Source: Chloroflexota bacterium (GTDB lineage Bacteria > Chloroflexota > Anaerolineae > JAAEKA01). From it: a DNA stretch of 64,000 bases. The stretch spans positions 10,622-74,621 of the forward strand of contig JAYELL010000101.1 in the NCBI GenBank assembly GCA_034717495.1, written 5' to 3'. Positions 2,391 to 64,000 of the stretch are shown here, piece after piece; the stretch's first letter is position 1; each line of letters begins with the position of its first letter. Under the pieces are notes generated by a model, which searched no databases, had not been told where the DNA came from, and saw only the letters and a list, made by a program, of their open reading frames with translations. A program made the position numbers and the translations under genes.

Positions 2391-3911
2391 TTATGAGCGG
2401 TGCGGCTGTGCCAGGGCGATCAATATGCTGCGCAGTCCGCGGGCTGTGACTGCCAGCAGGAATGGGTGGCCTTCGGGGGATCGATCGAGGCTCCAGGCTG
2501 TCGCGGCTGCCAGGTCGGCTGTTGTCTGTTCGCCCGCCAGTGCGAGCCACTCGCTCATTTTGTTCAGACTGGTCTTCACTAGTGCCTGTTGGGCGCTTTG
2601 ATCCGCGAACTCAGTGCGAGTAAGCTGCTCAACCCCTCTCTCGAACTGCTCGGGTGTTATTTCCTTGCCAGTCTCCAACATTGCTTCCGCGGCTTCAAAA
2701 ACCCGTTCGGACAGAAGTACCCAACCCGCCATTGCAACCTGATCCAACAGAATGAGGGTTTCCTCCGGGGCAACCGGCTGGGGTTCAGCACTGGTTGGCC
2801 GAGGTTGGGGCGGCGACCAACGCCAGAGCGCAACATTATGGAATCTGTAAGCCAGCGACGGCGTGGTCCGGTGAAGCCAATTGGTTGATAAGCCATCCAG
2901 GACCCGCCGCCGTCCATAGTCAAAAGGCGCTTCAAGCCAGGTGAGTCCCGGTAAGGACTTGTCGGCAGCATGGAGCGTGCCTTTCGACATGGCTGGTGGA
3001 AGGGTTTCATTGGGCACCGAAAGATTGCCCAGCGCATCGACGATTCCAGCCTGTCCCGTGATCTGCAGTTGCAGCACGGCACAGGTCTCTTCATCTTCAT
3101 TTGGTACACAAAACCACAGGAGCTGACGGCCCATGATATCAATAGGGCTGGCGAGACAACGGCTGGCAGCCGGAGGTGGGGCTGGGGGCGTCACAGCTAT
3201 GCCCTGCAGACGCAGCTTCTGCAGCGCGCGTCGGGCTTCGGGCTTCCGGTCCGGCGGAAGCGTAGGAATCAGTTCCTGAAGGGCTTTGCTTGCCTCACGG
3301 TTGATGGTGGAACCAAGGATTCCCAGGGCCTCGCTGGCTGCGGGGGTGTGCGGATCCTGAGCGAACAGCCGCAAAAGCTCGACTCTCTCCCCTTCGGAAA
3401 GTCGGCGCGTACTCTGGACCATCGTCATGAGAACATCGAGTGGCTCAAAGCTGAGTTGTCCCAGATAATCGAGCAGAATCGATGGGTTTGCCGGTACCTC
3501 CGCAAGCACTTGCTGTAGGGACTGGAGAGCCAATTTCTCAGGGGAGGCCATGTTGGCATACATACTTTCATCAGGTTCCACACCCAGATAGCGCTGCAGA
3601 ATCATGATGGCGCTCATGCGAGCCTGATCAGGCTCACTGCGGTCGCGAGCCACCGCACTCAGCGCGGTGATGGTTCTGTCCTGATCGAAAAATGTGGACA
3701 GGTATCCCAACCCGCCCCGAAGCTGAGGGTTGGAGGTATTCAGGGCTGCCAGCATCGCCGGAATCGCCTGCTCACCGTGTTGTTCAGCAATGCCCTGGGC
3801 CTTCTCATAGAGTTCCTGGTCGTCGCTGGTATCGGCAAACGAGCGGATGGCGTTTTCCAGCGCCAACCGATTCTGGAAGGAGGTAATGATCTTCGAATGG
3901 CGGTCGCTCAT
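2391..3911 (-). CDS. hypothetical protein, alpha-helical (HEAT/ARM-like N-terminus)
   Basis: Long ORF with codon-usage-consistent reading frame and no recognisable catalytic motif. Start taken at MSDRHSK. Confidence 0.5.
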   Translation of the reverse strand: MSDRHSKIITSFQNRLALENAIRSFADTSDDQELYEKAQGIAEQHGEQAIPAMLAALNTSNPQLRGGLGYLSTFFDQDRTITALSAVARDRSEPDQARMSAIMILQRYLGVEPDESMYANMASPEKLALQSLQQVLAEVPANPSILLDYLGQLSFEPLDVLMTMVQSTRRLSEGERVELLRLFAQDPHTPAASEALGILGSTINREASKALQELIPTLPPDRKPEARRALQKLRLQGIAVTPPAPPPAASRCLASPIDIMGRQLLWFCVPNEDEETCAVLQLQITGQAGIVDALGNLSVPNETLPPAMSKGTLHAADKSLPGLTWLEAPFDYGRRRVLDGLSTNWLHRTTPSLAYRFHNVALWRWSPPQPRPTSAEPQPVAPEETLILLDQVAMAGWVLLSERVFEAAEAMLETGKEITPEQFERGVEQLTRTEFADQSAQQALVKTSLNKMSEWLALAGEQTTADLAAATAWSLDRSPEGHPFLLAVTARGLRSILIALAQPHRS

Positions 3912-7257: not shown

Positions 7258-7351
7258 GCTTTCTCGTGTGGATAGCACATTAACAACTGAAAAGTGACAG
7301 GAAGGAACCAGTGTTTTGGGCTTCTGACCTATATGGTCAAGTCAATCTTTT

Positions 7352-8851
<1,500 letters not shown>

Positions 8852-8992
8852 CTAGGGAGTTATGGCCTGCCGAAGTCGGGTTAAGCCGACTGTCGGGTGG
8901 CATACTCCTAGGTCAATTGCTCGGCCTTGAGTCGAGTAACTTCCAAAACACCCTTGCTGTCACTTTTTAGTTGTTAATGATGTCTTCCGAGA

Positions 8993-9067
<75 letters not shown>

Positions 9068-9337
9068 TGACTGAAGCGCCGGTAGAGCACTGGTAGAAGA
9101 TTAAAACAAAGATATGAGCTTCAATCGCCAAGACAAGGCATAGATCATCAGTTTAAGCACGCGACGATCGTCAGACGACCCGGCGTTGTGCCGGGTCGTT
9201 TTTGCGTCTTGGGGAGTTGGTTTCTGAAGTTTGGGCTCAAGGTGTTTGAGGGCAAACTTCAGCAACCAAATGCTGAGATGTAGTTGTTACCTTAACAACC
9301 GAATAGAATGCGTACGCTTCAATTTCTTCCATCTCAT

Positions 9338-12328
<2,991 letters not shown>

Positions 12329-12408
12329 ATGAGGTGGTAGAGATTGAAAGCTGCATTCTATTCGGTTGTTAGGGTAACAACTCATATTAACTCGATAAAT
12401 AAGCTCCA

Positions 12409-12523
12409 TTGGTGACTCTAGCGGAGGTGGTACACCCAGTCCCATCCCGAACCTGGCAGTTAAGACCTCCAGCGCCGATGGTAGTTGGGACGTAGGTCCC
12501 TGCAAGAGTAGGTCGTTGCCAAC
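12409..12523 (+). rRNA. rrf: 5S ribosomal RNA
   Basis: TGGTGACTCTAGCGGAGGTGGTACACCCAGTCCCATCCCGAACCTGG...GTAGGTCGTTGCCAA matches the 5S consensus. T-run immediately downstream. Confidence 0.9.
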
Positions 12524-12550
12524 GGAGCTTGTTTTTTTTCCAACAAACCT

Positions 12551-51753: not shown

Positions 51754-52920
51754 TCAGCTCGCGTTGACAACCGTCAGGGGGATTGGGGTAAACACCAGGA
51801 AAAATACCAGGAGCGTGAAAATAGCGATCAGGCGCTCCGGAGTGGAAAGTTGGGTGATTTCGTCCAGGGGGGCGATCCGTACCCGGCCAAAGACCAGGAT
51901 CAGCAGCAACCAGAGCAGCCAGCCGATCCAGAAGAACGCCAGGATTGCCATGGCTGCGATCACGATCCAGTAGACGTAGCCGGCAATGCGTTCTCCTGTC
52001 AGCGCCAGCAGGATGTGGCCACCATCCAGTTGACCGGCAGGGATCAGGTTGAGGCCGGTGACCAGTAAACCAGCCCATGCGGCAAATGCCACCTGGTGAA
52101 TAAAGACATCCTCACCGCCGGCAGGCAGCAGGCGGCCAAAGACCAGGAACTTGAGGGCTGCATAGAGGATCGAGTTACCCTCCATCATGTAGTCGACGCC
52201 AATGGGTAGTGGCTCGATGCTACTGAGGCGAAGGCCCGCGATCAACAGGGGCACTGCAAGCACCAGGCCGGCAAGAGGACCTGCGACAGCAATGGCCAGA
52301 AGGTGGCGCCGATTACGCGGTGGCGCAGTCATGTTAATCACCGCACCCAGCGTTCCAAAGGGGCCAAGGGGCATGGGGATGAAATAGGGCAGGCTGACAG
52401 GGGTGCCCAGCCGGCGGGCAACCAGATAATGGCCGAATTCGTGGGCCGCCAGGATCGCCAGCAGGGCAGCTGCAAAAGGAATGCCATCGAGAAGATTGAG
52501 GTTTGTGCCGGTCAGGCCATCGACCATTTGAGCGCCGGCAAAGAGACAGGATAACAGGGTGAAAAAAAAGAGGGCAGCGGCTACGCCAATACGCTGGTTT
52601 GCTTTTTTAAGCTGACCAGGAATTGCAAGCACAACCTCGCCCTGCTTGTCCTCGTCCTCGCGCAACAGGGGCGTAAAGCCAAGGGCATGAAAGCGATCAA
52701 ACAGATAGGAAAAGGCTGCTTCCGATGGCAATAACAGGTGACCGCGAAACCGGATGACATGCCGCTGAAGTTCGTCTTCTCTCCGGTTGACGCGCAACAA
52801 GGGGTTTGCGATGGTCTCGACGTCCTCGGTGACGTCGTCAATGGCCATCACATCGTCGACAGTCGCGCGCAGGGCGCGAACCTGGAGAACTGTGGGTTCA
52901 GTCTGTGATTCCATGCTCAT
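51754..52920 (-). CDS. site-2 protease family (M50) membrane metalloprotease
   Basis: HEFGHYLVARRLG HExxH in a TM helix, multiple TM segments and an LDGGH motif (AGQLDGGHIL). Confidence 0.8.
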   Translation of the reverse strand: MSMESQTEPTVLQVRALRATVDDVMAIDDVTEDVETIANPLLRVNRREDELQRHVIRFRGHLLLPSEAAFSYLFDRFHALGFTPLLREDEDKQGEVVLAIPGQLKKANQRIGVAAALFFFTLLSCLFAGAQMVDGLTGTNLNLLDGIPFAAALLAILAAHEFGHYLVARRLGTPVSLPYFIPMPLGPFGTLGAVINMTAPPRNRRHLLAIAVAGPLAGLVLAVPLLIAGLRLSSIEPLPIGVDYMMEGNSILYAALKFLVFGRLLPAGGEDVFIHQVAFAAWAGLLVTGLNLIPAGQLDGGHILLALTGERIAGYVYWIVIAAMAILAFFWIGWLLWLLLILVFGRVRIAPLDEITQLSTPERLIAIFTLLVFFLVFTPIPLTVVNAS

Positions 52921-53335
52921 GTAAGCAGATCAGGCAATGGCACCGGATCAACGGCTGACTTGCGCACGGCAGATATCAAGCCGTATAATGTCATCCACCG
53001 ACCGCTGTCGGAAGACCGCTGACCGCCGACCGCGGCTCGATTCTTGCTGAAAAACAACTGCCAGTTTTTTTCCTGACACATTGTACGGCAGTTTCAGGTG
53101 CAGCGCAATTTGATACACCGCCGCGCTGAATGAACCGCCGACGTGTCCCGAGCGTGTCGAGGGGCGCAGCCGAAGGGAAAACGCTGATCGATCCAAATAG
53201 AATCAGCGAGAATCTGCGCCGGAGGTGTGCGTGAATCAGCGGTGAAAAGAAAAGAGCATGACCGCAGATGACGCTGATATACGCTGATAAACGCAGATCA
53301 GGCCTCAGAAAAGATCAGAGAAGATCGGCGACCTC

Positions 53336-53365
53336 TGCGCCGAAGGTCTGCGTAATCAGCGTTCC
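53336..53365 (+). repeat. left arm of 30-bp perfect inverted repeat (tctgcgccgaaggtctgcgtaatcagcgttcc), copy B of a ~44-bp repeat element
   Basis: Exact reverse complement of 55601-55630. A diverged direct copy (copy A) lies at ~53205-53245. Confidence 0.85.
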
Positions 53366-53392
53366 TCGTGGCTTGTCCAGGTTAGGAGAGGG

Positions 53393-55642
53393 ATGCTGTT
53401 GACGATCAGACGCTCTCGTACAAATGGGTTCCGTTGGTTCATATGGATGACTATAGCCGCTTTTCTAGTCGGTATCCTGCTTGCAATTCGCGTTGAAGCG
53501 GCCCATTCGCCAGTTGATCCCACTCCTGCCGGCGGTCTGGCGTTTCCGGCGCTGGAGTGGTATACCGAATGCGCCGATTGTCCGAGAAACATGTTTCAGG
53601 TGGGGGATCGCAGCCTTCGGCTGGACTCGCAGGGCCATCCCCATATCGCGTATGTTGGCGATCACGTGTACTATGCGTATTACAATGGGACGACATGGCA
53701 TCGGGAGATAATTGCAGGTGCCCCTGGCAGCATCTATGAATGGTACCAGGCGCCGGCATCGCTGGCTTTGGACAACGCCGACAGTGCCCATATTGCCTAC
53801 TTGGACTCGACCAGCAGTGCCCTCATGTATACCAAAAAGGTGGGTGACTCATGGCAAACCCAGACTGTGAGGGTAGCGGCACCGGGGGAAAAGATCTATT
53901 ACGACACGACTCTGGAACTTGATAGCGGTGGCAAGCCCCATATTGCCTATAGCAATCATGGGATCCTGGAGTATGCGTCATGGACCGGCACGCATTGGCA
54001 GATCCAGGTCGTGGACCGAAGCGGGTGGTCGGAGATGTTCATTTCCCTGGCATTGGATCACACCGACCGGCCTCATATGAGTTACTACATGGTCAACCAC
54101 CTTGGCTCGCACATGAAATATGCCACCTGGTGGGTTGATCGTTGGTTGCACTTTACCGTTGATCGCGCCGAATACCTGGGGGAATTCAACTCCATCGCGG
54201 TGGATAGCGGGGGACTCCCTCACATCAGTTATCTCGATACCACCGGCGAACGCCTGAAACACGCCTGGTGGATCGGTGGTGGATGGCACATTGAGGTGGT
54301 GGACGAGGCAGAATGGTGGGGCGGTTTCGCCTCGGTCGCCATCGACAGCCAGGATCGACCCCATATCAGCTATGCGACCCGGCAGAATGAAGGAAGGATC
54401 GCATCCTGGGATGGCAGTGGATGGCAGATCGATACGTTCGAGCAATCGATCTGGTACTCGTCCCTGGCCCTTGATAGCAATGATGAGCCCCACATTATGT
54501 ATTTTGGCTGGCAGGATTCGCAGCTGCGTTATTCCCGGAGGATCGAAGGGCAGTGGGAACGACAATCGTTGGACAGCGTTGGCAAAGCTGGCCGGTATCC
54601 CTCCCTGGAATTGGATAATGCAAATGGCCCAAGCCTGGCTTACATCGATTTTGGGTCAGATAGCCTCAAATTCACCCAGCGCGACAACGGCCACTGGCAG
54701 GTCGAGACCGTCGCACCGATCGGCAGTGGTGGTGGGCACTCTGACCTGGCGTTGAAGCTGTCTGGTGTGCCATTCATCAGTTACTACGACAGCAGCAACG
54801 GTGACCTGATGCTGGCCCGCCGTGAAAACGACCATTGGCTATCGGAGATCGTGGATTCCGGGGGAACCGGCGGCAATGTTGGCACTTACAGTTCTCTGGC
54901 CCTTGACCTCCTCGGTGATCCCCACATCAGCTACTATGACGAAATCGGGGGTGTTTTGAGATATGCTCGTCGTGCGGCTGGTGCCTGGCAGATCGAGATC
55001 GTTGATAACAATGGCGACGCCGGTCTATACACTTCGTTGGCTTTGAACGGTGCCGGACAGCCTCATATTGCCTATTACGATCAAAGAAACGGTGACTTGA
55101 AATTAGCGGTCCAGGCCGCGGGTGTCTGGTCGATAGAGGTGGTGGATGGCCAAGGGGACGTTGGTTCCTTCAGTTCCCTGGCGCTCGACAGTTCGGGTGA
55201 GCCTCGAATCAGCTACTACGACGCTGGTGCCGGCGGTCTGAAATATGCGCGGCGCGATGGCGGCGCCTGGTATACGGAGACCGTCGATTCTGTCGGTCTC
55301 GCGGGGCAGTACACCTCGCTGGCGCTGGATGTGGAGGACCGGCCCCATATCAGCTATCACCAGGGGTCGTTTGGCGGCGCGCGATATGCCCGACTTACAG
55401 AGAGTGGCTGGCAGATTCAGGAGATTGCCAACGGTTGGCGGATGGGAGAAGGAACCTCCCTTGCTCTGGACAGTGCAGGATACCCCTGTATCGCTTTTCA
55501 TGATGGAGAGAACCAGGACTTGCTGGTGACTGCCGGGCAGCCCGTTCGTGCCTTCCTCCCGTTGGTCTCTTTTTCAGGTTCCCAACCGGGACAAGCCAGA
55601 GGAACGCTGATTACGCAGACCTTCGGCGCAGATTCACGCTGA
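53393..55642 (+). CDS. secreted/membrane-anchored tandem-repeat protein (~14 x ~47-aa repeats, propeller-like), function unknown
   Basis: N-terminal signal anchor (FRWFIWMTIAAFLVGILLAI). About 14 copies of the consensus [S]LALDsxGxPHI[SA]YyDxxxgxLkYAxrxxgxWxxExVDxxGxxGxYxS. GGAGAGGG RBS. Confidence 0.7.
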   Translation: MLLTIRRSRTNGFRWFIWMTIAAFLVGILLAIRVEAAHSPVDPTPAGGLAFPALEWYTECADCPRNMFQVGDRSLRLDSQGHPHIAYVGDHVYYAYYNGTTWHREIIAGAPGSIYEWYQAPASLALDNADSAHIAYLDSTSSALMYTKKVGDSWQTQTVRVAAPGEKIYYDTTLELDSGGKPHIAYSNHGILEYASWTGTHWQIQVVDRSGWSEMFISLALDHTDRPHMSYYMVNHLGSHMKYATWWVDRWLHFTVDRAEYLGEFNSIAVDSGGLPHISYLDTTGERLKHAWWIGGGWHIEVVDEAEWWGGFASVAIDSQDRPHISYATRQNEGRIASWDGSGWQIDTFEQSIWYSSLALDSNDEPHIMYFGWQDSQLRYSRRIEGQWERQSLDSVGKAGRYPSLELDNANGPSLAYIDFGSDSLKFTQRDNGHWQVETVAPIGSGGGHSDLALKLSGVPFISYYDSSNGDLMLARRENDHWLSEIVDSGGTGGNVGTYSSLALDLLGDPHISYYDEIGGVLRYARRAAGAWQIEIVDNNGDAGLYTSLALNGAGQPHIAYYDQRNGDLKLAVQAAGVWSIEVVDGQGDVGSFSSLALDSSGEPRISYYDAGAGGLKYARRDGGAWYTETVDSVGLAGQYTSLALDVEDRPHISYHQGSFGGARYARLTESGWQIQEIANGWRMGEGTSLALDSAGYPCIAFHDGENQDLLVTAGQPVRAFLPLVSFSGSQPGQARGTLITQTFGADSR

Positions 55643-55645
55643 TCT
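55601..55645 (+). repeat. right arm of inverted repeat / inverted copy of the 44-bp repeat element, overlapping the last 14 codons and stop of the repeat-protein gene
   Basis: The reverse complement, gatcagcgtgaatctgcgccgaaggtctgcgtaatcagcgttcc, is a chimera-like match to upstream copies A and B. Confidence 0.85.
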
Positions 55646-55726
55646 TTTTTGTGATTGATCTGCGATCATACTTCGGCTTCGCTCAGCACAAGTCTGCGTT
55701 GATCCTTCGGCTACGCTCACCGTCAC

Positions 55727-55818
55727 GCTACGTCAGCACGTCAGCACGTCAGCAGACGATGCGTGAGCTAGACGATGCGTGAGCTAGACGATGCGTGAGC
55801 TAGACGATGCGTGAGCCA
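55727..55818 (+). repeat. tandem repeats: acgtcagc x3 followed by 16-bp (gacgatgcgtgagcta) x4
   Basis: Direct reading of 55727-55818, in the convergent intergenic region between the repeat-protein gene and the helicase gene. Confidence 0.85.
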
Positions 55819-55999
55819 GGTAGCGAGCGCTCCGTGAGGTGGTGCCCCGGCGCAGTGAGCGGCTGTTGTCGACGGGAGGATCAACGTGCTGAACAGGGTT
55901 TGTGCGTTTCCGCCAGGACCTGAGTTCAGTTCGTTCGAGCGGCAATGGTGATTTTTCTCGAATGGGGGCAGAAAAAGGGAGGCTCTGGAAAATACGGAA

Positions 56000-58396
56000 T
56001 CAACGCCTGGATGGAAGAAGCATTTCCAGGATCAACTGGGCTGCTGCCTTATCCAGCGGCTCATTGTTGCTGCCGCACTTGGGACTCTGGATGCAGCTTG
56101 GGCAGCCATCATGGCAGGGACAGCGGGCGATGACCTCCCAGGTTGCCCGCCAGAGATCAGGCAACTGTTTGAAGCCTTGCTCGGCGATTCCCACGCCGCC
56201 GGGAAAGCCGTCATAGATGAACACCTGGGGCGCATCGGTATCCGGATGGCGCGGCGTGCTCAGTCCACCGATGTCCCACCGATCACACATCGCGAAAAGA
56301 GGTAAAATTCCGATGGCAGCGTGTTCGGCGGCATGGATGCCTCCCAGAAAGTCAAGCCTGCGGCGAGCACAGGCCCTGATCATTTCCGGTGACAGGTCCC
56401 ACCAGAGGGCCGCTGTCTCGAATGTGGTTGCGGGAAGTTCCAGCATTTCCTCACCGAGAACCTCCTCGGTGTAGTGGCGCAGTCGCCGGTAGCCGATGAC
56501 CTGGGATGTTGTGCGCACTTGCCCAAAGTAAGCGTTTCCCCCGGGGATGGCGCGGTGGGCCAGTGAGCGAAGTATCCGTACGTCACTCCATTCCCTTGGC
56601 TGGGTGTAGTAATCAACCTCGACAGGTCGCACAATGGCAAAACCCTGGTCCGCGTCGAAGCGGGTGACCAGGTAGCTCTCTCCCTGGTGCAGGTAGATGG
56701 CGCCGGGATGAACCCGTTGCGTTGCGCTGCTGGCTTCAATCTCTTCCAGTGTTCTGTGGTTGTTGGCCTCGTTGAGGATAGCAAAACGGGATCCGCCGAT
56801 GGATCGAAGGTTTACCTTTTCGGCCGGATAATCGTTGCCATTGTAGGCCCATCGATCCCCCTGGAAACTGAGCCTTCTCGTTTGCTCCAACTCAACCATG
56901 GCAGGCACGAATCCGGGACCAAAGAGGGCTTCATCGTCGAAATGCCCCGGCGAGGCAACATTGGTCAACGGTACCTCATGGGCCGCGCAGGGCAAGTGAC
57001 GAGCGAGGACATAGACGTTGTCCGGGTCGATCAGGGCATGTTCGTGGGGCCGGCCGAATAGCTCCTCCGGGTGACGCATGAAATACTGGTCAAGCGGGTT
57101 ATCAAGCGCGATCAGAATGGCCAGCGAGGGTTCATTCCCTCGTCCAGCCCGTCCAGCCTGCTGCCAGAGGCTGGCAATGGTGCCTGGATAACCCACAAGC
57201 ACAGCAGCATCCAGGCCACCGACATCGATACCCAGTTCCAGCGCGTTGGTTGCCGTGACCCCCAGTAGCTCGCCCGAAAAGAGGTCTCGCTCGATTTTTC
57301 GTCGTTGTTCGGGGGTGTAGCCTGCCCGGTAGGCCGCGATCCGGCTTGACAGGCTTTCATCGCCTTTAGCGGACCTGCGCCGGATTCCCCTGGTCTTGCC
57401 TTCCGGATTCTGGCCTTTCTTCAGCTCCTCCCGGGCGTAACGAAGGATCAACTCGGCAACCTTGCGCGCCCGTGTGAAGACAATGGTTCTGGTCTGGTTG
57501 CGTACCAGGGCTGAGAACAGATTGGTGGCCTCGCTGTTAGCACTGCGACGGGCTGTCCTGGCTTTGTCAATAAGGGGTGCATTCCAGAGTGCGAAACTGC
57601 GCGGACCCTGGGGGCTGCCATCGTCATCGACCACAACGCCCTCGACCCCGGTGAGCCCCAAAAAGTGTTGTGCCGGGTTGGCGATGGTTGCGCTGGTAGC
57701 GATGAATTGGGGTTCGCTGCCATATACGGCACAGACTCGACGCAACCGGCGCAGCACACAGGCTACCTGCGAACCAAAGACTCCCCGGTAGGTATGAGCC
57801 TCGTCCACCACAACGTATCGCAGATTGCGCAAGAAACTTCCCCACAGGGGATGATTGGGTAAAATCCCGAGATGGAGCATGTCGGGATTGGTGAGGATGA
57901 TCTGGCCCGACTTGCGCAGCCGTCCCCGGCGACTCTGGGGTGTGTCGCCGTCGTAGGTGCCGACCGTGACAGGCAAGGAGGTGGTCCCTCGACCTCGCTG
58001 ACCTTCGATGGCGCAGCCTAACTCTCGCAGTGCCCTTAATTGATCCTGGGCCAATGCCTTGGTGGGATAGAGATAAAGGGCTCGGGCGGTAGGCCGTTCC
58101 AGAATGGCTTCCAGCACGGGCAGGTTGTAGCCCAGGGTCTTGCCGCTGGCAGTTGCGGTGACGAGAATCAAATGCTGGCCCGACTGGGCGGCGTTTATCG
58201 CCTGTGCCTGGTGGGTAAAAAGGCGAGTGATTCCCTGGGCTTCCAACTGCCGCTTAAGGACTGGATGCAGCGGAATGGTCAGCTTTCCGTATTTTGCCCC
58301 CCGTCGCGCAACCTGTTCCAGGTGAACAATCTGGCTCTGGTAGAAGGACTGGCGACGCAGGTCCCTGAGAAAGCTGTTGACGTTCACGTTACTCAA
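56000..58396 (-). CDS. DEAD/DEAH-box helicase with C-terminal DUF1998 zinc-ribbon domain (YprA/MrfA-like)
   Basis: Motif I ATASGKTLGY, motif II VVVDEAH, helicase C motifs (QQAGRAGR), and a C-terminal 4-Cys DUF1998 (CPCHDGCPSC...C). Confidence 0.85.
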   Translation of the reverse strand: MSNVNVNSFLRDLRRQSFYQSQIVHLEQVARRGAKYGKLTIPLHPVLKRQLEAQGITRLFTHQAQAINAAQSGQHLILVTATASGKTLGYNLPVLEAILERPTARALYLYPTKALAQDQLRALRELGCAIEGQRGRGTTSLPVTVGTYDGDTPQSRRGRLRKSGQIILTNPDMLHLGILPNHPLWGSFLRNLRYVVVDEAHTYRGVFGSQVACVLRRLRRVCAVYGSEPQFIATSATIANPAQHFLGLTGVEGVVVDDDGSPQGPRSFALWNAPLIDKARTARRSANSEATNLFSALVRNQTRTIVFTRARKVAELILRYAREELKKGQNPEGKTRGIRRRSAKGDESLSSRIAAYRAGYTPEQRRKIERDLFSGELLGVTATNALELGIDVGGLDAAVLVGYPGTIASLWQQAGRAGRGNEPSLAILIALDNPLDQYFMRHPEELFGRPHEHALIDPDNVYVLARHLPCAAHEVPLTNVASPGHFDDEALFGPGFVPAMVELEQTRRLSFQGDRWAYNGNDYPAEKVNLRSIGGSRFAILNEANNHRTLEEIEASSATQRVHPGAIYLHQGESYLVTRFDADQGFAIVRPVEVDYYTQPREWSDVRILRSLAHRAIPGGNAYFGQVRTTSQVIGYRRLRHYTEEVLGEEMLELPATTFETAALWWDLSPEMIRACARRRLDFLGGIHAAEHAAIGILPLFAMCDRWDIGGLSTPRHPDTDAPQVFIYDGFPGGVGIAEQGFKQLPDLWRATWEVIARCPCHDGCPSCIQSPKCGSNNEPLDKAAAQLILEMLLPSRR

Positions 58397-59987
58397 ACAG
58401 GTATCGCAGCATGATGCTGTGGATGATCTGCTCGATGGGGGCCCTGTCGTCGGTCAGGACCGGACCATCGGTGTTGGCAGGTCTGGCTGTGGTGGCGGAG
58501 CGACGAATCATCTCTGCCAGAAGAGGCTGTGCTGATGGATCGATGGCGGCCGCGTTGGCCTGGAAGTCGGACAGCGTTGTTGGCTGTACCGTTGCTACCA
58601 ACAACGAGTTGCCCAGGGCAAAGCCCTCGGTCGACTCGTCAATCACATACACCGAAGGGAATACCTGGCCCATAGTCGATGCCAGCGCATTGACCAGCCT
58701 GTAGTCGTCCTGGCTGCGAGCGGCATTTACTGCGATGACACCGTCCTCTTCCAGGTGTTCCCGCGCTAACCTGAAGAATTCCACCGTAGCCAGCTGGAAG
58801 GGGATGTATGGGGGGCGATACGCGTCCACTGCGATGACCGAATAGCGTTTGTCGGGCGGCTGGGCCATGAGCCATGTTCTTCCATCTGCGGCAACAGCAT
58901 CAATGTTTGGGTAGTCGCCCAGGTGAAAGTAGTCGTAGGCGGCCTGGACGATGTCAGGATCCAACTCAACACCGTCGATGGGGATCGGTCCATACACTTT
59001 GCTATACAGCTGAGCCGCGGTGCCACCTGCCAGTCCAACCAGGTACATACTTGTCACCGAAGCTGTGTCAGCGGGTTGCGGATTTGCCTCGCGTTGAGCA
59101 AACAGGGGTGCCACGAGAAAATAATCCCAGATACCATTGCTCAGAGCCGATTGGGGGTGGTAGACAGAGTGAAGGCCGATTCCTTCATTCAGCTTGAGCC
59201 AGGTTTCCGATCCCTTCTGCAGAACCTGATAATAGTTGTACAGGGACTCCCCTTCGTGCACCAGGCCCTTCGATGGTTTGACTGCGCCCTGGCTACTTAA
59301 CCATGTCAACAGGATCAGAAGCGGCAGGGCCAGAAAGAAGGGTGCAGCGCGGCGTCCTTTTTCCAGAAACAGCCCGATCAAGGCGACCGCTGCCAGGAGT
59401 CCTGCCAAAAGAATAAAGGTCAGCCGGGTACCGATGGACGGGATCAACACCAGGACGGGCAAAAAAGTGCCGGTCAAGCTACCCACGGAACTGAGTGCAT
59501 AGAGACGCCCCACTGTCTGTCCGCTGGTCTCCACATCGGATACCGCCAGGCGGGCAGCGAAGGGAGAGACGATACCCAGCAACAGGGTTGGAAAGCTGAA
59601 GAGCAGGAAGATCGATACCGCTGCTGCCAGGAGCAAGCCTGCGCTCACGTTCTCCAGGTTCAGGCTGCTGAGGGCTGCTCGCTGCAGGATGGGGCGGGAT
59701 GCCACTGGCACCAATGCTACCAGGAGGGCAGCAACCAGACAGATGGTGTACAGCAGCGTGGCACTGGGGCGCCGGTCGGCCAGTTTGCCTCCAATCCAAT
59801 ACCCGACGCTGAGACTGGCCAGTATCAGGCCTATCAGCGCAGTCCAAACGAGGATCGAATTGCCAAACCAGGGATCCAGTAACCGGGCCGCGGTGAGTTC
59901 CAGTCCCAATGTCACCAGGCCGGCCACGAAGACCAGCAGGTTCAGATAGCCTGGATGGCGAATGGAGATCGAGGACACAGAGGACAT
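58389..59987 (-). CDS. fused polytopic membrane domain / spermidine synthase-like (class I SAM-binding) protein
   Basis: N-terminal ~220 aa with 6-7 TM helices. C-terminal PABS-like fold (GGGTAAQLY...VDGVELDPDIV...VIAVDAYRPPYIPFQL). Its stop overlaps the helicase start by 8 nt. Confidence 0.7.
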   Translation of the reverse strand: MSSVSSISIRHPGYLNLLVFVAGLVTLGLELTAARLLDPWFGNSILVWTALIGLILASLSVGYWIGGKLADRRPSATLLYTICLVAALLVALVPVASRPILQRAALSSLNLENVSAGLLLAAAVSIFLLFSFPTLLLGIVSPFAARLAVSDVETSGQTVGRLYALSSVGSLTGTFLPVLVLIPSIGTRLTFILLAGLLAAVALIGLFLEKGRRAAPFFLALPLLILLTWLSSQGAVKPSKGLVHEGESLYNYYQVLQKGSETWLKLNEGIGLHSVYHPQSALSNGIWDYFLVAPLFAQREANPQPADTASVTSMYLVGLAGGTAAQLYSKVYGPIPIDGVELDPDIVQAAYDYFHLGDYPNIDAVAADGRTWLMAQPPDKRYSVIAVDAYRPPYIPFQLATVEFFRLAREHLEEDGVIAVNAARSQDDYRLVNALASTMGQVFPSVYVIDESTEGFALGNSLLVATVQPTTLSDFQANAAAIDPSAQPLLAEMIRRSATTARPANTDGPVLTDDRAPIEQIIHSIMLRYLFE

Positions 59988-60192
59988 GGCGTTGAATAGA
60001 ACGATGGGCTTCGGGTTGAAACGGTGGGTCCTGCGCGAAGTTTAGCACACATGATCGGGTGCGTCAAAGCTGGTTGCTTTCCGCTGGCGATTGACTTTCA
60101 CGCCATGCGAGAGTAGAATAGGCTGCTTGCCTCTGCGTTTAACGCCAGGCAAGTTGCTGTGATAATGGGGTGGAAATCCAATATCGAGGTGT

Positions 60193-63100
60193 TTGTACAT
60201 GTTCAAACGCGTAGTGTTAATCCTTATCGTTCTGGGCTTGCTGCTCTCTGAATCGATGACCGGTGCAAGCCGTGTCGCTGCAAATACGTTCAAGGGTGAT
60301 CCCTCTTCAGCGCTTATCTCGAATGGCACTGATCCCCTTCGATTATACCATGATTCCAACGGTATTACCCTGGAATTGAGACTGCCCGACTATCACATTA
60401 CCGAGATCCAAAGAGAAGGCGAAACCTTCCATCAGATCGTCGTGGCCAGCGAGGATTGGGTCCAGTCAAACACGCCAGGCGCTCCGCAGATTCCAGAACG
60501 CAATCTCCTTCTGGCGGTACCTGCCACGGGCAATATCGCGCTGGAGGTGCTCGATGCACAATGGCAGGAGGTGGCGGGTACCTTTCACCTGCAATCAGCC
60601 GCACAATATGGCCTTGACGCTGCAGGTGACCAGGAAGAGCAATCTCTGAAAGCTACCTGGGACCTGGACCCGGCCATCTACAACCAGTCGAGGTGGACGC
60701 CACAAAAGAGCGCCGAGATAACACGGGAAGGCCACTGGCGTGGTTTTCGTTATGCAGGTTTGGCCCTGCGGCCCTTTCAATTCAATCCCGTTGAGGGGAA
60801 GGTGCGGGCTTTGTCGACGCTCACGGTTCGGCTTTCATTCTCGATGCCTCAGCCATTCGAGATTGACGAGCCCGCGGCGGATCCCCTGTTCGATCCGATT
60901 CTCGCAGCCACATTTGCCAACTTTGATCAAGCCTTGCAATGGCGAAGCCAGACTGTATCTCCGATTTCGGTGCCGGGAATCCATCGAGGCTCCGGCGCCG
61001 GTGGGCCATGGGTGAAAATCATGGTGGACAGCGATGGTTTGTACCGCGTCACCTATGGAGACCTCGTAGATGCGGGCATATCCAACTTGACACTCGACTC
61101 GCTGAACCCGCAGACATTTCGGCTGTATGATGATAGCCTCGAGCAGGATATCAGCGTGCTGGGGCAAGGTGATGCCAGCTTTGACCCTGTTGACGAAATC
61201 CTATTCTACGGAGGGCGCAACAGGGAAAAGCTGAGTAGCGATGACAACGTCTATTGGCTCACGTGGGACGGGCAAGCTGGCCATCGAATGCTCGAGGTCT
61301 CTGGCACCCCACAATCGGCCGCGCCAGCCAATACGCTCTTGACAACCCTGCACGTCGAGGATAACACACTCTACAAACAGCAGCGGCCCTTCATCGGCTG
61401 GCTGGAGCCCATGGTGTACGACCATTGGTATTGGCAGCACGTTGAGATAAGCAAAACTATCTCGATGGATAACCTGGCTGTAGACACCAGTTCCCCGTTG
61501 AGTGCCACCCTGTCCGTATGGATGGCAGGGGACAGGAGAGACGCGGGCAATTACATAGTCGATTTCGAGGTCAATGGCCAGGATGCGGGAAGCATGGCAT
61601 GGAGTAGCACAAAAGTGCTCACCGGCACCCATGCCATTCCGGTCGGATCACTGACCGACGGCAGCAACGATCTCTGGCTGGCTCCTCGTATTCTCGGTTT
61701 CCCGGCCTGGGAATATACCGTTTGGCTGGATTGGGTCAAACTGACCTATCCCTACGATGGGCGTTATCTGCCAGGAAGCCCTTTCGGCAATCCGACTCCT
61801 GGTACCTGGCTCTATCAACTGACGGACGTTCCGGAGTCCGCCCCATGGATTCTCAACCTTGCATCGGCAGACCAGCCACAGAAGATACTGGGAGCCCAGG
61901 CTGTTCCTGCAGACAGCGGTTTCACACTGAGTTGGCAGGTGACATCGGCGGCCGAGGATCGTTTCCTGGTGGTGCCGCCGGCGGAAATCCGTTCACCTGG
62001 CGACATCCAGGTATACAGCGATGCCGGGCTATTGAATCCTGATCAACAGGTTGATTATCTGATGATTTCCCATGGTGATTTGATTGGCTCTGCCCAACCG
62101 CTGGCGGATCAACATTCGGCATCAGGGCTTTCAGTGGCCTTGATCGATGTACAGGCTATCTACGATATCTTCAGCGATGGCTCGGTGTCTGCCGAAGCGA
62201 TTCGGGATTTTCTGGGCTATGCCTACGACAACTATCAATGGCCGCCCCCGGCCGCAGCTCTGCTGATCGGCGATGGCACTGTCGATTTTCGCGGGTATCA
62301 GTTTGCCAGCTATGGGCACGCCAATCTCATTCCGCCGTACATGGGTGGTTTCGACTTCTGGGGTGGGGCAACACCTTCGGACAATGCCTATGTCTGGTTG
62401 GAGGGGGATGACGTGCTCGGTGAGATGCTGATTAGCCGTTTGCCTGTCAATAACCCTGCGCAAGCCAACGTGGTCGTCGACAAGATCCTCAACTATCCCT
62501 CGAGTTTTCCTGCCGGTCGGGCGTTGAGCACCTTCTGGGTGGCCGACAACCCTGATAGCGAAAACCCGCTTCATGGCACACAGTTCCATCTGGCGAGCGA
62601 GGAAACCCTGGCCGAGCTTGCCCCGGAGTTCCAGGTTGATCGCGCTTACTTCTGCGATCCCGCTGTGAATACCTGCACGGGTGATTCCTGGATCTACACC
62701 GACGTTCCCACCATTCGCACGGCCATCCAGGAAGGCATTAGCGAGGGACATGCATTCCTGCATTTTTCTGGGCACGGTAGTATTGGTACCTGGGCCGTTG
62801 AAGCGATATTCCGCAAAGGCTATGTCAGCCAGTTGAGCAACGGTGACGCATTGCCGTTCATGCTGATTTCCTCCTGCACCAACGGTTACTTCGCCGATGC
62901 GCGCTGGGACGGCCTGGACGAAACGATGTTACGCACCGAGGATAAAGGCACCGTGGGTGGTTTCGCGGGCACAACCTTTGATACTTTGACTCCTCAGACA
63001 GCGGTTTCGAAATATTTCCTCCGGGCTGTGATGAACGATGGTATCACTCAACCGGGACCCGCGTCGGCTGTGGCGAGGGCCAAAACATACGTCCAATTTC

Positions 63101-63489
63101 CAGGCAATGAAGGAGAATTCACGGCAGTAGGGCACAATCTATCCGGCGATCCCTTGCTCTATTTGATCAGCCCCGAGAGCTGCATCGAGGGAGATCTGGA
63201 TTGCGATGGCGATATCGATATCGTCGACGTGCAAAGGGTAGCCGCAGTTTGGAACAGCACCGCATGGCAACCTGGATTCAATCCCCGAGCCGATCTGGTG
63301 AGGGATGGCCGGATCACTGTGGAGGATATGGCTGCCATCAGTGCTCTCTGGCAGACGACTTTCAGAAGACCGCAGACGACTTTCAGAAGACCGCAGACGA
63401 CTTTCAGAAGACCGCAGACGACTTTCAGAAGACCGCAGACGACGGACGGCAGACCGCTTCCAGAGGACGGCGACACGGTGACACGGTGA
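60193..63489 (+). CDS. secreted peptidase C25 (gingipain-like) family protein with C-terminal dockerin-like segment and TTFRRPQ x4 repeats
   Basis: Signal peptide MFKRVVLILIVLGLLLS. Catalytic-region motifs HFSGHGSIGTW and ISSCTNGYF (His/Cys dyad pattern of C25). Ca-binding-like DLDCDGDIDIVD. Four 21-bp tandem repeats encode TTFRRPQ. Confidence 0.7.
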   Translation: MYMFKRVVLILIVLGLLLSESMTGASRVAANTFKGDPSSALISNGTDPLRLYHDSNGITLELRLPDYHITEIQREGETFHQIVVASEDWVQSNTPGAPQIPERNLLLAVPATGNIALEVLDAQWQEVAGTFHLQSAAQYGLDAAGDQEEQSLKATWDLDPAIYNQSRWTPQKSAEITREGHWRGFRYAGLALRPFQFNPVEGKVRALSTLTVRLSFSMPQPFEIDEPAADPLFDPILAATFANFDQALQWRSQTVSPISVPGIHRGSGAGGPWVKIMVDSDGLYRVTYGDLVDAGISNLTLDSLNPQTFRLYDDSLEQDISVLGQGDASFDPVDEILFYGGRNREKLSSDDNVYWLTWDGQAGHRMLEVSGTPQSAAPANTLLTTLHVEDNTLYKQQRPFIGWLEPMVYDHWYWQHVEISKTISMDNLAVDTSSPLSATLSVWMAGDRRDAGNYIVDFEVNGQDAGSMAWSSTKVLTGTHAIPVGSLTDGSNDLWLAPRILGFPAWEYTVWLDWVKLTYPYDGRYLPGSPFGNPTPGTWLYQLTDVPESAPWILNLASADQPQKILGAQAVPADSGFTLSWQVTSAAEDRFLVVPPAEIRSPGDIQVYSDAGLLNPDQQVDYLMISHGDLIGSAQPLADQHSASGLSVALIDVQAIYDIFSDGSVSAEAIRDFLGYAYDNYQWPPPAAALLIGDGTVDFRGYQFASYGHANLIPPYMGGFDFWGGATPSDNAYVWLEGDDVLGEMLISRLPVNNPAQANVVVDKILNYPSSFPAGRALSTFWVADNPDSENPLHGTQFHLASEETLAELAPEFQVDRAYFCDPAVNTCTGDSWIYTDVPTIRTAIQEGISEGHAFLHFSGHGSIGTWAVEAIFRKGYVSQLSNGDALPFMLISSCTNGYFADARWDGLDETMLRTEDKGTVGGFAGTTFDTLTPQTAVSKYFLRAVMNDGITQPGPASAVARAKTYVQFPGNEGEFTAVGHNLSGDPLLYLISPESCIEGDLDCDGDIDIVDVQRVAAVWNSTAWQPGFNPRADLVRDGRITVEDMAAISALWQTTFRRPQTTFRRPQTTFRRPQTTFRRPQTTDGRPLPEDGDTVTR

Positions 63490-63607
63490 CACGGCGACAC
63501 GGGGACACGGAGACACGGCGACACGGTGACACGGCGACACGGCGACACGGCGACACGGAGACACGGAGACACGGTGACACGGCGACACGGTGACACGGTG
63601 ACACGGC
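63472..63607 (+). repeat. octanucleotide tandem array (GACACGGN) x17 that starts 15 nt before the C25 peptidase stop codon (63487-63489) and spans it
   Basis: Direct count of 17 units with period 8 and a variable 8th base. Flanked by ~47-bp direct repeats (63426-63472 and 63617-63664). Confidence 0.9.
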
Positions 63608-63679
63608 GGTCAGATTCCAGAAGACCGCAGACGACGGACGGCAGACCGCTTCCAGAGGACGGCGGTCAGAGGGAATAAG

Positions 63680-64000
63680 GTGAAGGTTGCAATTCTCGGC
63701 AGGTACCCGGTAAACGGCCGTCGCGTAGCTGGTGGACCAGACGCTGTGGTGTCACAGCTGGCCAGTGGACTACAACAAATGGCGGACGTGGAAGTCCATG
63801 TCGTTACGCTTTCCAGCCAGGTGCCGGAAGATGCGTTTTTTGAGCGGGATGGCATATGGGTCCATTCGATCCGGCCACGCCGGCTACCTCGCTGGACCAT
63901 GCTTCGGCTAAATGCCCGCGCGCTGGAGCAGGCGCTGAAGGCTATTGCCCCTGATGTCGTTCATGCTCACGATGCAGGGACATATGCCGATGCGGCCCTC
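63680..64000 (+). CDS. glycosyltransferase family 4 (N-terminal domain), 3' truncated by window edge
   Basis: GTG start. MKVAILGRYPVNGRRVAGGPDAVVSQLASGL...VHAHDAGTYA is the typical GT4 N-terminal (Glyco_trans_4) pattern. Confidence 0.65.
   Translation, partial: MKVAILGRYPVNGRRVAGGPDAVVSQLASGLQQMADVEVHVVTLSSQVPEDAFFERDGIWVHSIRPRRLPRWTMLRLNARALEQALKAIAPDVVHAHDAGTYADAAL

Follow-up and report, generated by a model that had tools for sequence, protein, structure and literature searches.

Nested tandem repeats between a C25 peptidase gene and a glycosyltransferase gene in a Chloroflexota bacterium

Background

Cyanobacterial short tandemly repeated repetitive (STRR) sequences, reportedly described by Mazel et al. 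in 1990, are heptanucleotides. Here we analyze an array of octanucleotides, together with the longer repeats that adjoin it, in a 64,000-nucleotide stretch of genomic DNA from a Chloroflexota bacterium (contig JAYELL010000101.1, positions 10,622 to 74,621, referred to below as the window and numbered from its first letter). The array lies at the 3′ end of a gene for a C25 family cysteine peptidase and ahead of a family-4 glycosyltransferase (GT4) gene. Several kinds of short repeats in prokaryotic DNA offer themselves for comparison. Long simple sequence repeats (SSRs) with units of 5–11 nt have been attributed to polymerase slippage (Mrazek, Guo and Shah 2007, to the extent summarised in PMC4679880). 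Intergenic direct repeats of TAACTGA are common to Beggiatoaceae, Cyanobacteria and others, and a regulatory role has been proposed for them but not demonstrated (PMC4679880). Octanucleotide repeat sites are also on record from Geobacter, with a different sequence (PMC2700814).

An earlier note on the window, made from the sequence alone, had likened the octanucleotide array to a contingency locus, i.e., a tract in which changes of repeat number switch the form of a protein. Our analysis examines the anatomy of the repeats, the consequences of changes in unit number for the encoded protein, the corresponding gene junction in relatives, and the occurrence of the same octanucleotide in other genomes.

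Results and discussion

Our preferred interpretation, which we consider likely, is that the repeats are lineage-specific tandem DNA of the slippage type that passively adds an unconserved tail to the peptidase and separates its gene from the GT4 gene, without serving as an on/off switch. The features concerned are the following:

60199–63489, + strand: C25 family cysteine peptidase gene (list of open reading frames, Pfam), with an alternative TTG start at 60193
63351–63443, + strand: 21-bp tandem repeat GCAGACGACTTTCAGAAGACC (Tandem Repeats Finder, TRF: period 21, 4.4 copies, 100% matches)
63426–63472, + strand: 47-nt direct repeat, first copy CAGAAGACCGCAGACGACGGACGGCAGACCGCTTCCAGAGGACGGCG, translated as RRPQTTDGRPLPEDG (exact identity and boundaries checked)
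63472–63607, + strand: octanucleotide array of 17 GACACGGN units (TRF, pattern search, unit stepping)
63487–63489, + strand: TGA stop of the C25 open reading frame (ORF), which takes its T from the variable base of unit 2 and its GA from the first two bases of unit 3
63603–63614, + strand: 12-nt junction ACGGCGGTCAGA, which closes the array and recurs at 63659–63670, where it closes the second 47-mer (repeat search)
63618–63664, + strand: 47-nt direct repeat, second copy, 192 bp downstream in the same reading frame and untranslated at present
63676–63678, + strand: TAA that is in frame with C25 and lies a single base ahead of GT4; it would serve as the stop without the 192-bp segment (sequence and simulated deletion)
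63680–64000, + strand: GT4 gene, beginning with a GTG preceded by GAGGGA (Pfam Glyco_trans_4_4 and Glyco_transf_4; synteny)

Anatomy of the repeats

TRF and pattern search recovered the structure outlined in the earlier note, namely four 21-bp units, a pair of 47-nt direct repeats and 17 octamers, apart from small corrections of coordinates. The 21-bp units (TRF score 186 for 4.4 copies) translate in the C25 frame as TTFRRPQ four times, as had been stated, and a degenerate fifth copy extends to 63455. Each unit consists of two CAGAMGAC half-repeats with alternating 11- and 10-bp spacing, as judged from motif positions, and the same word runs on through both 47-mers. The two 47-nt copies are exact and cannot be extended on either side; the first lies where it had been placed, and the second begins at 63618 rather than 63617. 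Their offset of 192 bp is divisible by both 3 and 8.

In the octamer array (TRF score 214 for 17.8 copies of 8 bp), GACACGG is invariant in all 17 units and the eighth base follows the series TTCGACTCCCAATCTTC, i.e., T six times, C seven times, A three times and G once. Matches to two consecutive units number 16 in the window, counted with overlaps, compared to 0.05 expected from shuffles, and the pattern search found only one GACACGG array in the 64 kb. The structure thus qualifies as a long SSR, consisting of uninterrupted head-to-tail short units and being longer than expected by chance. Since ACGGCGGTCAGA stands at the end of the array as well as at the end of the second 47-mer, the duplicated segment is a unit of 56 bp, and the octamer array lies inside its first copy, between GGACGGCG and GTCAGA. 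The simplest description of the sequence would be that ACGGCGGTCAGA marks the array as an insertion or expansion within that first copy. No second copy of any part of the repeat DNA occurs elsewhere in the 64-kb window, which rules out a dispersed element on this scale. There are no inverted repeats in 63000–64000 and no inverted partner array for the octamers. The segment 63351–63670 contains 108 G, 95 C, 91 A and 26 T, so that T makes up 8% of the sense strand, and the AT skew over the repeat region ranges from +0.45 to +0.74.

A separate observation concerns the word CAGAnGAC. In 63352–63461 and 63618–63653 there are nine consecutive sites at 11/10-bp spacing, with more in both 47-mers, so that the word faces the same side of the double helix at every turn. 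By analogy, this geometry resembles that of direct-repeat binding sites of response regulators, here located upstream of GT4 genes. The periodicity may also be a by-product of the way in which the 21-bp unit arose.

The repeat-encoded tail of the peptidase

The C25 gene encodes a signal peptide, a C25 propeptide, a catalytic domain, a dockerin-like domain and a tail of 45 repeat-encoded residues (Pfam: Propeptide_C25 7e-13, Peptidase_C25 6e-62, Dockerin_1 2.7e-4). The annotated product has 1,096 amino acids including these 45. A homologue search covering 5.8 billion proteins gave a closest match of 51% identity, and the 15 best homologues, one of them from an organism named Anaerolineae bacterium, are 45–51% identical and 1034–1072 aa long. 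All 15 (P0001–P0015) end 4–5 residues past the terminal Trp of the dockerin domain, mostly with LWxTPVP and with GTRP in P0015. The protein of the window reads ...ISALWQT, then TFRRPQ four times and TTDGRPLPEDGDTVTR before the stop. Its homology to the 15 relatives ends at ...ISALWQT, at about 63360, and the repeat DNA starts exactly there. The 45-residue tail is therefore a lineage-specific addition, and no catalytic or dockerin residue depends on the repeats. The extension of the reading frame follows from base composition: a sense strand so poor in T seldom spells a stop codon, and the ORF continues for 45 codons until the first in-frame GGTGAC. This first in-frame stop is supplied by a T at the degenerate position of the octamer. 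The tail is unconserved and basic, and probably disordered.

Could the tail, with its four TTFRRPQ units, be a selected appendage, for example a basic linker or anchor for envelope polysaccharide made by the adjacent glycosyltransferases? The period of 21 bp preserves the frame, the peptide is rich in Arg and Thr, and glycosyltransferase genes are indeed adjacent. However, the tail is missing from all 15 homologues and matches no family, the units do not differ by a single nucleotide, which speaks for a very recent origin and not for a peptide repeat under maintenance, and the same DNA words run on into the untranslated spacer. We regard this explanation as highly improbable.

Closer relatives of the locus were sought in several collections. 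Exact-product look-ups of the C25 protein and of the neighboring 532-aa protein returned no match, peptide-pattern scans for close C25 relatives found none in the genome or metagenome contig collections, and a 31-nt pattern designed to match either form of the 21-bp unit had no match in metagenome contigs.

Consequences of changes in unit number

The octamer period is not a multiple of 3, as the earlier note had pointed out, and thus has the unit length of a translational switch; the 21-bp period is a multiple of 3, and changes in the number of 21-bp units merely add or remove TTFRRPQ. It had further been claimed that the tail and the position of the stop change with every gain or loss of a unit. 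We simulated 17 single-unit deletions and 17 single-unit duplications of the octamers, and 32 of these 34 changes leave the protein identical. This is because the stop lies at the beginning of the array: the TGA does fall among the octamers but it straddles units 2 and 3 instead of lying inside unit 3. Loss of unit 1 or unit 2 (both GACACGGT) adds 32 residues of the form RRHGDTxT, followed by a stop at unit 15.

Successive octamer units shift the frame by 2, and each T-variant unit puts a TGA in one frame. Assigned by hand from the unit coordinates and translations, the stops fall at unit 2 in frame 1, at units 1, 7, 13 and 16 in frame 2, and at unit 15 in frame 3. All three forward frames close inside the array, so no alternative ORF or fusion can be reached; translational fusion of C25 to GT4 by frameshift is likewise impossible. 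A coding role of the variable base was also considered, as frame 3 reads RRHGDT[VEA]T over 14 units with four Arg-preserving NGA codons, and was rejected; the chance of this is about 1 in 16 and the frame is joined to no gene. Recombination between the 47-mers would, as had been said, delete the array. The offset being a multiple of 3, the frame would be kept, and in silico removal of the 192 bp leaves the C25 frame open to end ...PLPEDGGQRE at the TAA at 63676–78.

These outcomes bear directly on the proposal of a contingency (phase-variable) locus, in which octamer changes or 47-mer recombination would switch C-terminal forms of a secreted or surface peptidase. Several properties speak for it besides the unit length. 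The repeats are very pure and hence probably mutable, phase variation is common among products such as a secreted dockerin-bearing protease, a tail longer by 32 aa results when unit 1 or 2 is lost, and the 192-bp deletion alters the last five residues and restores the abutment of stop and start with GT4. The position of the tract nevertheless argues to the contrary, as a phase-variable tract would be expected in the promoter, in the 5′ UTR or ahead of essential coding sequence. The tract of the window begins where homology to the 15 relatives ends, past the last conserved residue. Nearly all single-unit changes are silent, and with every frame closed in the array no domain is gained or lost. 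No event in unit number touches a conserved residue, which leaves no means of gating expression of a functional protein. None of the alternative tails, which are short and of low complexity, matches Pfam, and the relatives function without any tail. We consider a contingency locus very improbable.

The C25–GT4 junction in relatives

The GT4 gene runs past the end of the window and is the conserved downstream neighbor of C25 (synteny in L001–L003 and L128–L130). These six syntenic loci, of Anaerolineae type, share the order MrfA-like helicase, 533-aa gene, C25 and GT4 genes. The C25–GT4 spacers measure −4, 8, 28, 88, 116 and 231 bp. None of the six junctions contains tandem repeats, the relatives being distant at about 50% protein identity, and the repeats of the window therefore represent a lineage-specific expansion. 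The longer spacers of L001 and L003 hold terminator-like hairpins. In L129 the two genes overlap by 4 bp (3496–3499), and they are 8–28 bp apart in L130 (3124–3133) and L128 (5471–5500); three overlapping or near-abutting junctions of this kind are typical of translationally coupled genes in an operon. Removal of the 192 bp from the window recreates the tight stop-start layout of these three relatives. Together with the conserved order of helicase, 533-aa, C25 and GT4 genes, these junctions suggest that in this Anaerolineae-like clade the secreted C25 peptidase and the glycosyltransferase cluster are linked in function, a link not recognised before.

No RNA structure was predicted for the repeat, which is less structured than shuffled controls (z = +1.28). 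A simple consensus scan, which may not suit this phylum, found neither an intrinsic terminator nor a sigma-70-like promoter on the + strand, and Rfam gave no relevant match at E ≤ 1 in 52500–64000. A palindromic element of the REP (repetitive extragenic palindromic) or MITE (miniature inverted-repeat transposable element) type and an intrinsic terminator are not supported, given the absence of inverted repeats, the fold z-score and the scan of the + strand, and neither is a known structured RNA, given the Rfam result.

Proposed origin of the repeats

In the origin that we propose, a nested minisatellite and long SSR would have grown by slippage and unequal recombination in the spacer between C25 and GT4. 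A purine-rich, T-poor segment of 56 bp would have been duplicated first. The 5′ part of this segment, containing CAGAMGAC half-repeats, would then have expanded into the 21-bp units, and GACGGCG near the end of the first copy would have seeded the expansion to 17 GACACGGN units; the octamer resembles this GACGGCG, which stands just before the array. As a consequence, the tight stop-start coupling or the terminator hairpin seen in relatives would have been lost, leaving an unstructured spacer of 190 nt ahead of the GT4 ribosome-binding site. The most economical reading of the region would be that of an unstructured intercistronic spacer in a single C25–GT4 transcript.

The 21-bp units are perfectly identical to one another, as are the 47-mers, which points to recent expansion or homogenisation or to turnover that still continues, so that copy number probably differs between strains. 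Length variation of the octamer array, which is likewise probable, would be nearly neutral for the protein. Other short arrays occur in nearby intergenic DNA (55730–55816 and 52998–53326), namely 8 bp × 3.1 and 16 bp × 3.9 at 55730–55816 and several 10-mers at 53138–53326, and point to a genome generally prone to such expansions.

Repeats of this sort raise the question of an assembly artefact, in which the unit number, the 192-bp duplication or the variable eighth bases would be errors of repeat collapse or mis-joining. Tandem repeats and exact 47-nt duplicates are classic assembly hazards, and no independent copy of the locus was found in the searched collections for a cross-check. On the other hand, the contig spans at least 64 kb and contains an intact 16S-tRNA-23S-5S operon, as is typical of long-read or finished assemblies, and a complete rRNA operon suggests a good assembly, which makes an artefact less likely. 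The whole structure is only about 320 bp long, and arrays like it are known from many independent assemblies, among them those of isolates and one complete chromosome. An artefact is thus, in our estimation, highly unlikely.

A number of observations weigh against growth by slippage as the whole explanation. Within the array only one of the eight unit positions varies, where all four bases occur, and the other 119 positions are unchanged. Under neutral decay, restriction to one position would have a probability of about (1/8)^2 = 0.016 for three independent events. At least 120 stretches in other genomes, from many phyla, contain the same heptamer, with a conserved GGNGA core. The recurrence and the core hint at a sequence-specific constraint or a generating mechanism beyond simple slippage. 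In addition, the case for co-transcription of C25 and GT4 comes from the order of the genes and from the lack of a terminator in the simple consensus scan.

Recurrence of the octamer in other genomes

Four consecutive GACACGGN units were found by pattern scan in at least 120 stretches of species-representative genomes. The phyla among the matches listed include Planctomycetota, Cyanobacteriota, Chloroflexota, Acidobacteriota, Actinomycetota, Verrucomicrobiota, Lentisphaerota, Gemmatimonadota and others, and the sources include isolates and one complete chromosome. Individual genomes in this set hold several loci (13 in Okeania SIO3B5, five in an Oscillochloris bin and four in Anaerolineae H33_435), and arrays are also present in Nostoc, Anabaena, Okeania and Trichodesmium. 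The deviation of individual units from the octamer was profiled over 478 further units outside the four seed units, again among the matches listed:

unit positions 1, 2, 6 and 7: 3–5% of units deviate
unit positions 3, 4 and 5: 13–19% of units deviate
unit position 8: 23% of units deviate

This profile amounts to a conserved GGNGA core, and the one-position variation in the window agrees with it. Co-directional flanking ORFs among the matches listed place the array in sense orientation 27 times and in antisense orientation 10 times (binomial p ~0.01). These counts come from crude ORF calls and are inflated by paralogous copies, for which the p value is uncorrected. The Chloroflexota arrays listed often have T at position 8, start at or within the upstream stop codon, and give way to inverted arrays or to unrelated arrays of 7- or 8-mers; in T-variant arrays (e.g., L114, L025 and L117) the array itself provides the TGA of the upstream gene.

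These data could be taken to mean that the octamer array is a functional, sequence-constrained cis element, one of a cross-phylum class with a GGNGA core that acts at the level of DNA or RNA. Possible roles would be to bind a protein multivalently, to act between C25 and GT4 as an insulator or attenuator prone to R-loops or two-tetrad G-quadruplexes, or to close all reading frames. Such an element would be in line with the recurrence across phyla, with the several genomes holding many loci, with the low deviation at positions 1, 2, 6 and 7 relative to position 8, with the sense bias, with the restriction of variation to position 8 in the window, and with the supply of the upstream TGA by T-variant arrays. 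However, with ~4,000 octamer classes and 596 Gb of sequence, about 100 matches would be expected by chance if genomes average roughly one octamer array each. In viral contigs, a collection other than the genomes and one yielding small numbers, the octamer had one match compared to 0 and 3 for two scrambled octamers. The same genomes hold many unrelated period-7 and period-8 arrays, and the orientation bias may be a by-product of leading-strand G-richness combined with gene-strand bias. For the window there is no predicted structure and no Rfam family, 15-mers of the array sequence have no text match in the papers searched, and many arrays elsewhere are paired with an inverted array whereas that of the window is not. 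On balance we regard a functional cis element as unlikely. More specific candidates, a CsrA-like GGA role or a Shine-Dalgarno sponge, were rejected for the window, in which only 4 of the 17 units have A or G at position 8.

The recurrence itself we treat as unexplained rather than established. It is doubtful that octamers of the form G-A-y-r-y-G-G-N, with a GGNGA core, constitute cross-phylum sequence-constrained elements that follow genes directly on the sense strand, are multicopy in some genomes and have one free position. If this were true, the constraint would imply a common binding factor or nucleic-acid structure, or else a dedicated mechanism that generates the arrays, such as one in which a 7-nt template is copied repeatedly and each round adds one untemplated base. 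The array in the window would then be unusually informative, having all four bases at position 8 and no change elsewhere.

Some of the matching genomes show arrangements of their own. In the Anaerolineae metagenome-assembled genome (MAG) H33_435, GACRCGGN arrays (L036 ~1630–1760, L070 ~1050–1200 and L086 5–310, in minus-strand orientation) are directly followed by long arrays of complementary octamers (CCGCGTCA/CCGTGTCA), and such pairs would be predicted to form very long imperfect intergenic hairpins. Oscillatoriales (Okeania, Trichodesmium and others) carry a dispersed element with the structure ...ggcgttgctgaatactgggatgatt GACACGGN x4–16 gattatggtttctgctctctgacaaaatcatccc, found at L021, L033, L034, L064, L078, L085, L102 and L112, the flanks of which are mutually complementary (gggatgatt / aatcatccc). 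A second family, ...ggcagggctgtttcattctcgata array gatgaaggcttttaa, occurs at L018, L023, L026, L044, L051, L099, L101 and L106. Cyanobacterial paralogues with conserved flanks and 4–16 units indicate, indirectly, that such arrays change length readily.

Other features of the window

A perfect 34-nt inverted repeat (53334–53367 and 55599–55632) brackets an ORF of 749 aa at 53393–55642, which has no Pfam match and contains five occurrences of a motif of ~44 nt. Short words (CGCTGAT, GCAGAT) and 10-mer tandems are dense in the intergenic DNA on its flanks, and the region could be a mobile or cassette-like unit. Adjacent perfect arrays of ACGTCAGC (x3.1) and AGACGATGCGTGAGCT (x3.9) at 55730–55816 make up another compound locus of short repeats, located where the 749-aa ORF and the gene for the MrfA-like helicase converge. 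The rRNA operon is arranged as follows, with inverted repeats of 29–30 nt flanking the 23S gene (9282–9346 and 12320–12382) that are most likely a processing stem:

7350–12524: rRNA operon, consisting of 16S (7350–8851), tRNA (8993–9066), 23S (9339–12329) and 5S (12408–12524)

Implications

The locus calls for caution in annotation, given that 45 residues of a 1,096-aa peptidase are a by-product of repeat DNA, and given that a tract which appears prone to frameshifts cannot switch the peptidase. It illustrates how repeat expansion can break the tight coupling of operon neighbors, and as a variable-number tandem repeat (VNTR) marker it would suit strain typing in this lineage. Should the recurrence of the octamer exceed chance, it would reveal an undescribed constraint or mechanism behind a common and ignored kind of bacterial non-coding DNA.

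Comparison with known repeat systems

Contingency loci of Haemophilus, Neisseria and Campylobacter (PMC12721329, PMC7383803) resemble the window in that a tract with a period that is not a multiple of 3 overlaps the ORF of a secreted or surface protein. They differ in that the tract of the window lies past all conserved domains, has the stop at units 2/3 with no frame yielding an alternative product, and consists of units that are not identical.

The STRRs share with the octamer arrays the intergenic tandem arrangement of 7–8-nt units and the many loci per genome. They are, in contrast, heptamers (e.g., CCCCAGT) of heterocystous cyanobacteria, whereas the window has an octamer in Anaerolineae-like Chloroflexota. 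With its 8-nt unit, its Anaerolineae MAG-like gene neighborhood and a single array in 64 kb, the locus does not belong to the STRRs. The TAACTGA repeats (PMC4679880) are similar in that one short unit occurs across distant phyla, in intergenic DNA and oriented relative to genes, but they are AT-rich and located directly upstream of gene starts, whereas GACACGGN arrays are GC-rich and typically found right after stops. Both STRRs and TAACTGA repeats are thus analogues rather than members of the same family.

The closest known category is the long SSR with 5–11-nt units, i.e., the bacterial VNTR or minisatellite. The hallmark of a VNTR is copy-number polymorphism, whereas the array of the window is known from one sequence. 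The window also departs from the long SSR in being a compound nest of 21-bp units, a 56-bp duplication and an 8-bp array, and in an octamer with one fully degenerate and seven invariant positions. In the features covered by the summary in PMC4679880, the likeness to long SSRs is close: short head-to-tail units extend far beyond chance, lie mostly in non-coding DNA or at gene ends, are phylogenetically scattered yet abundant in particular genomes, and are attributed to slippage.

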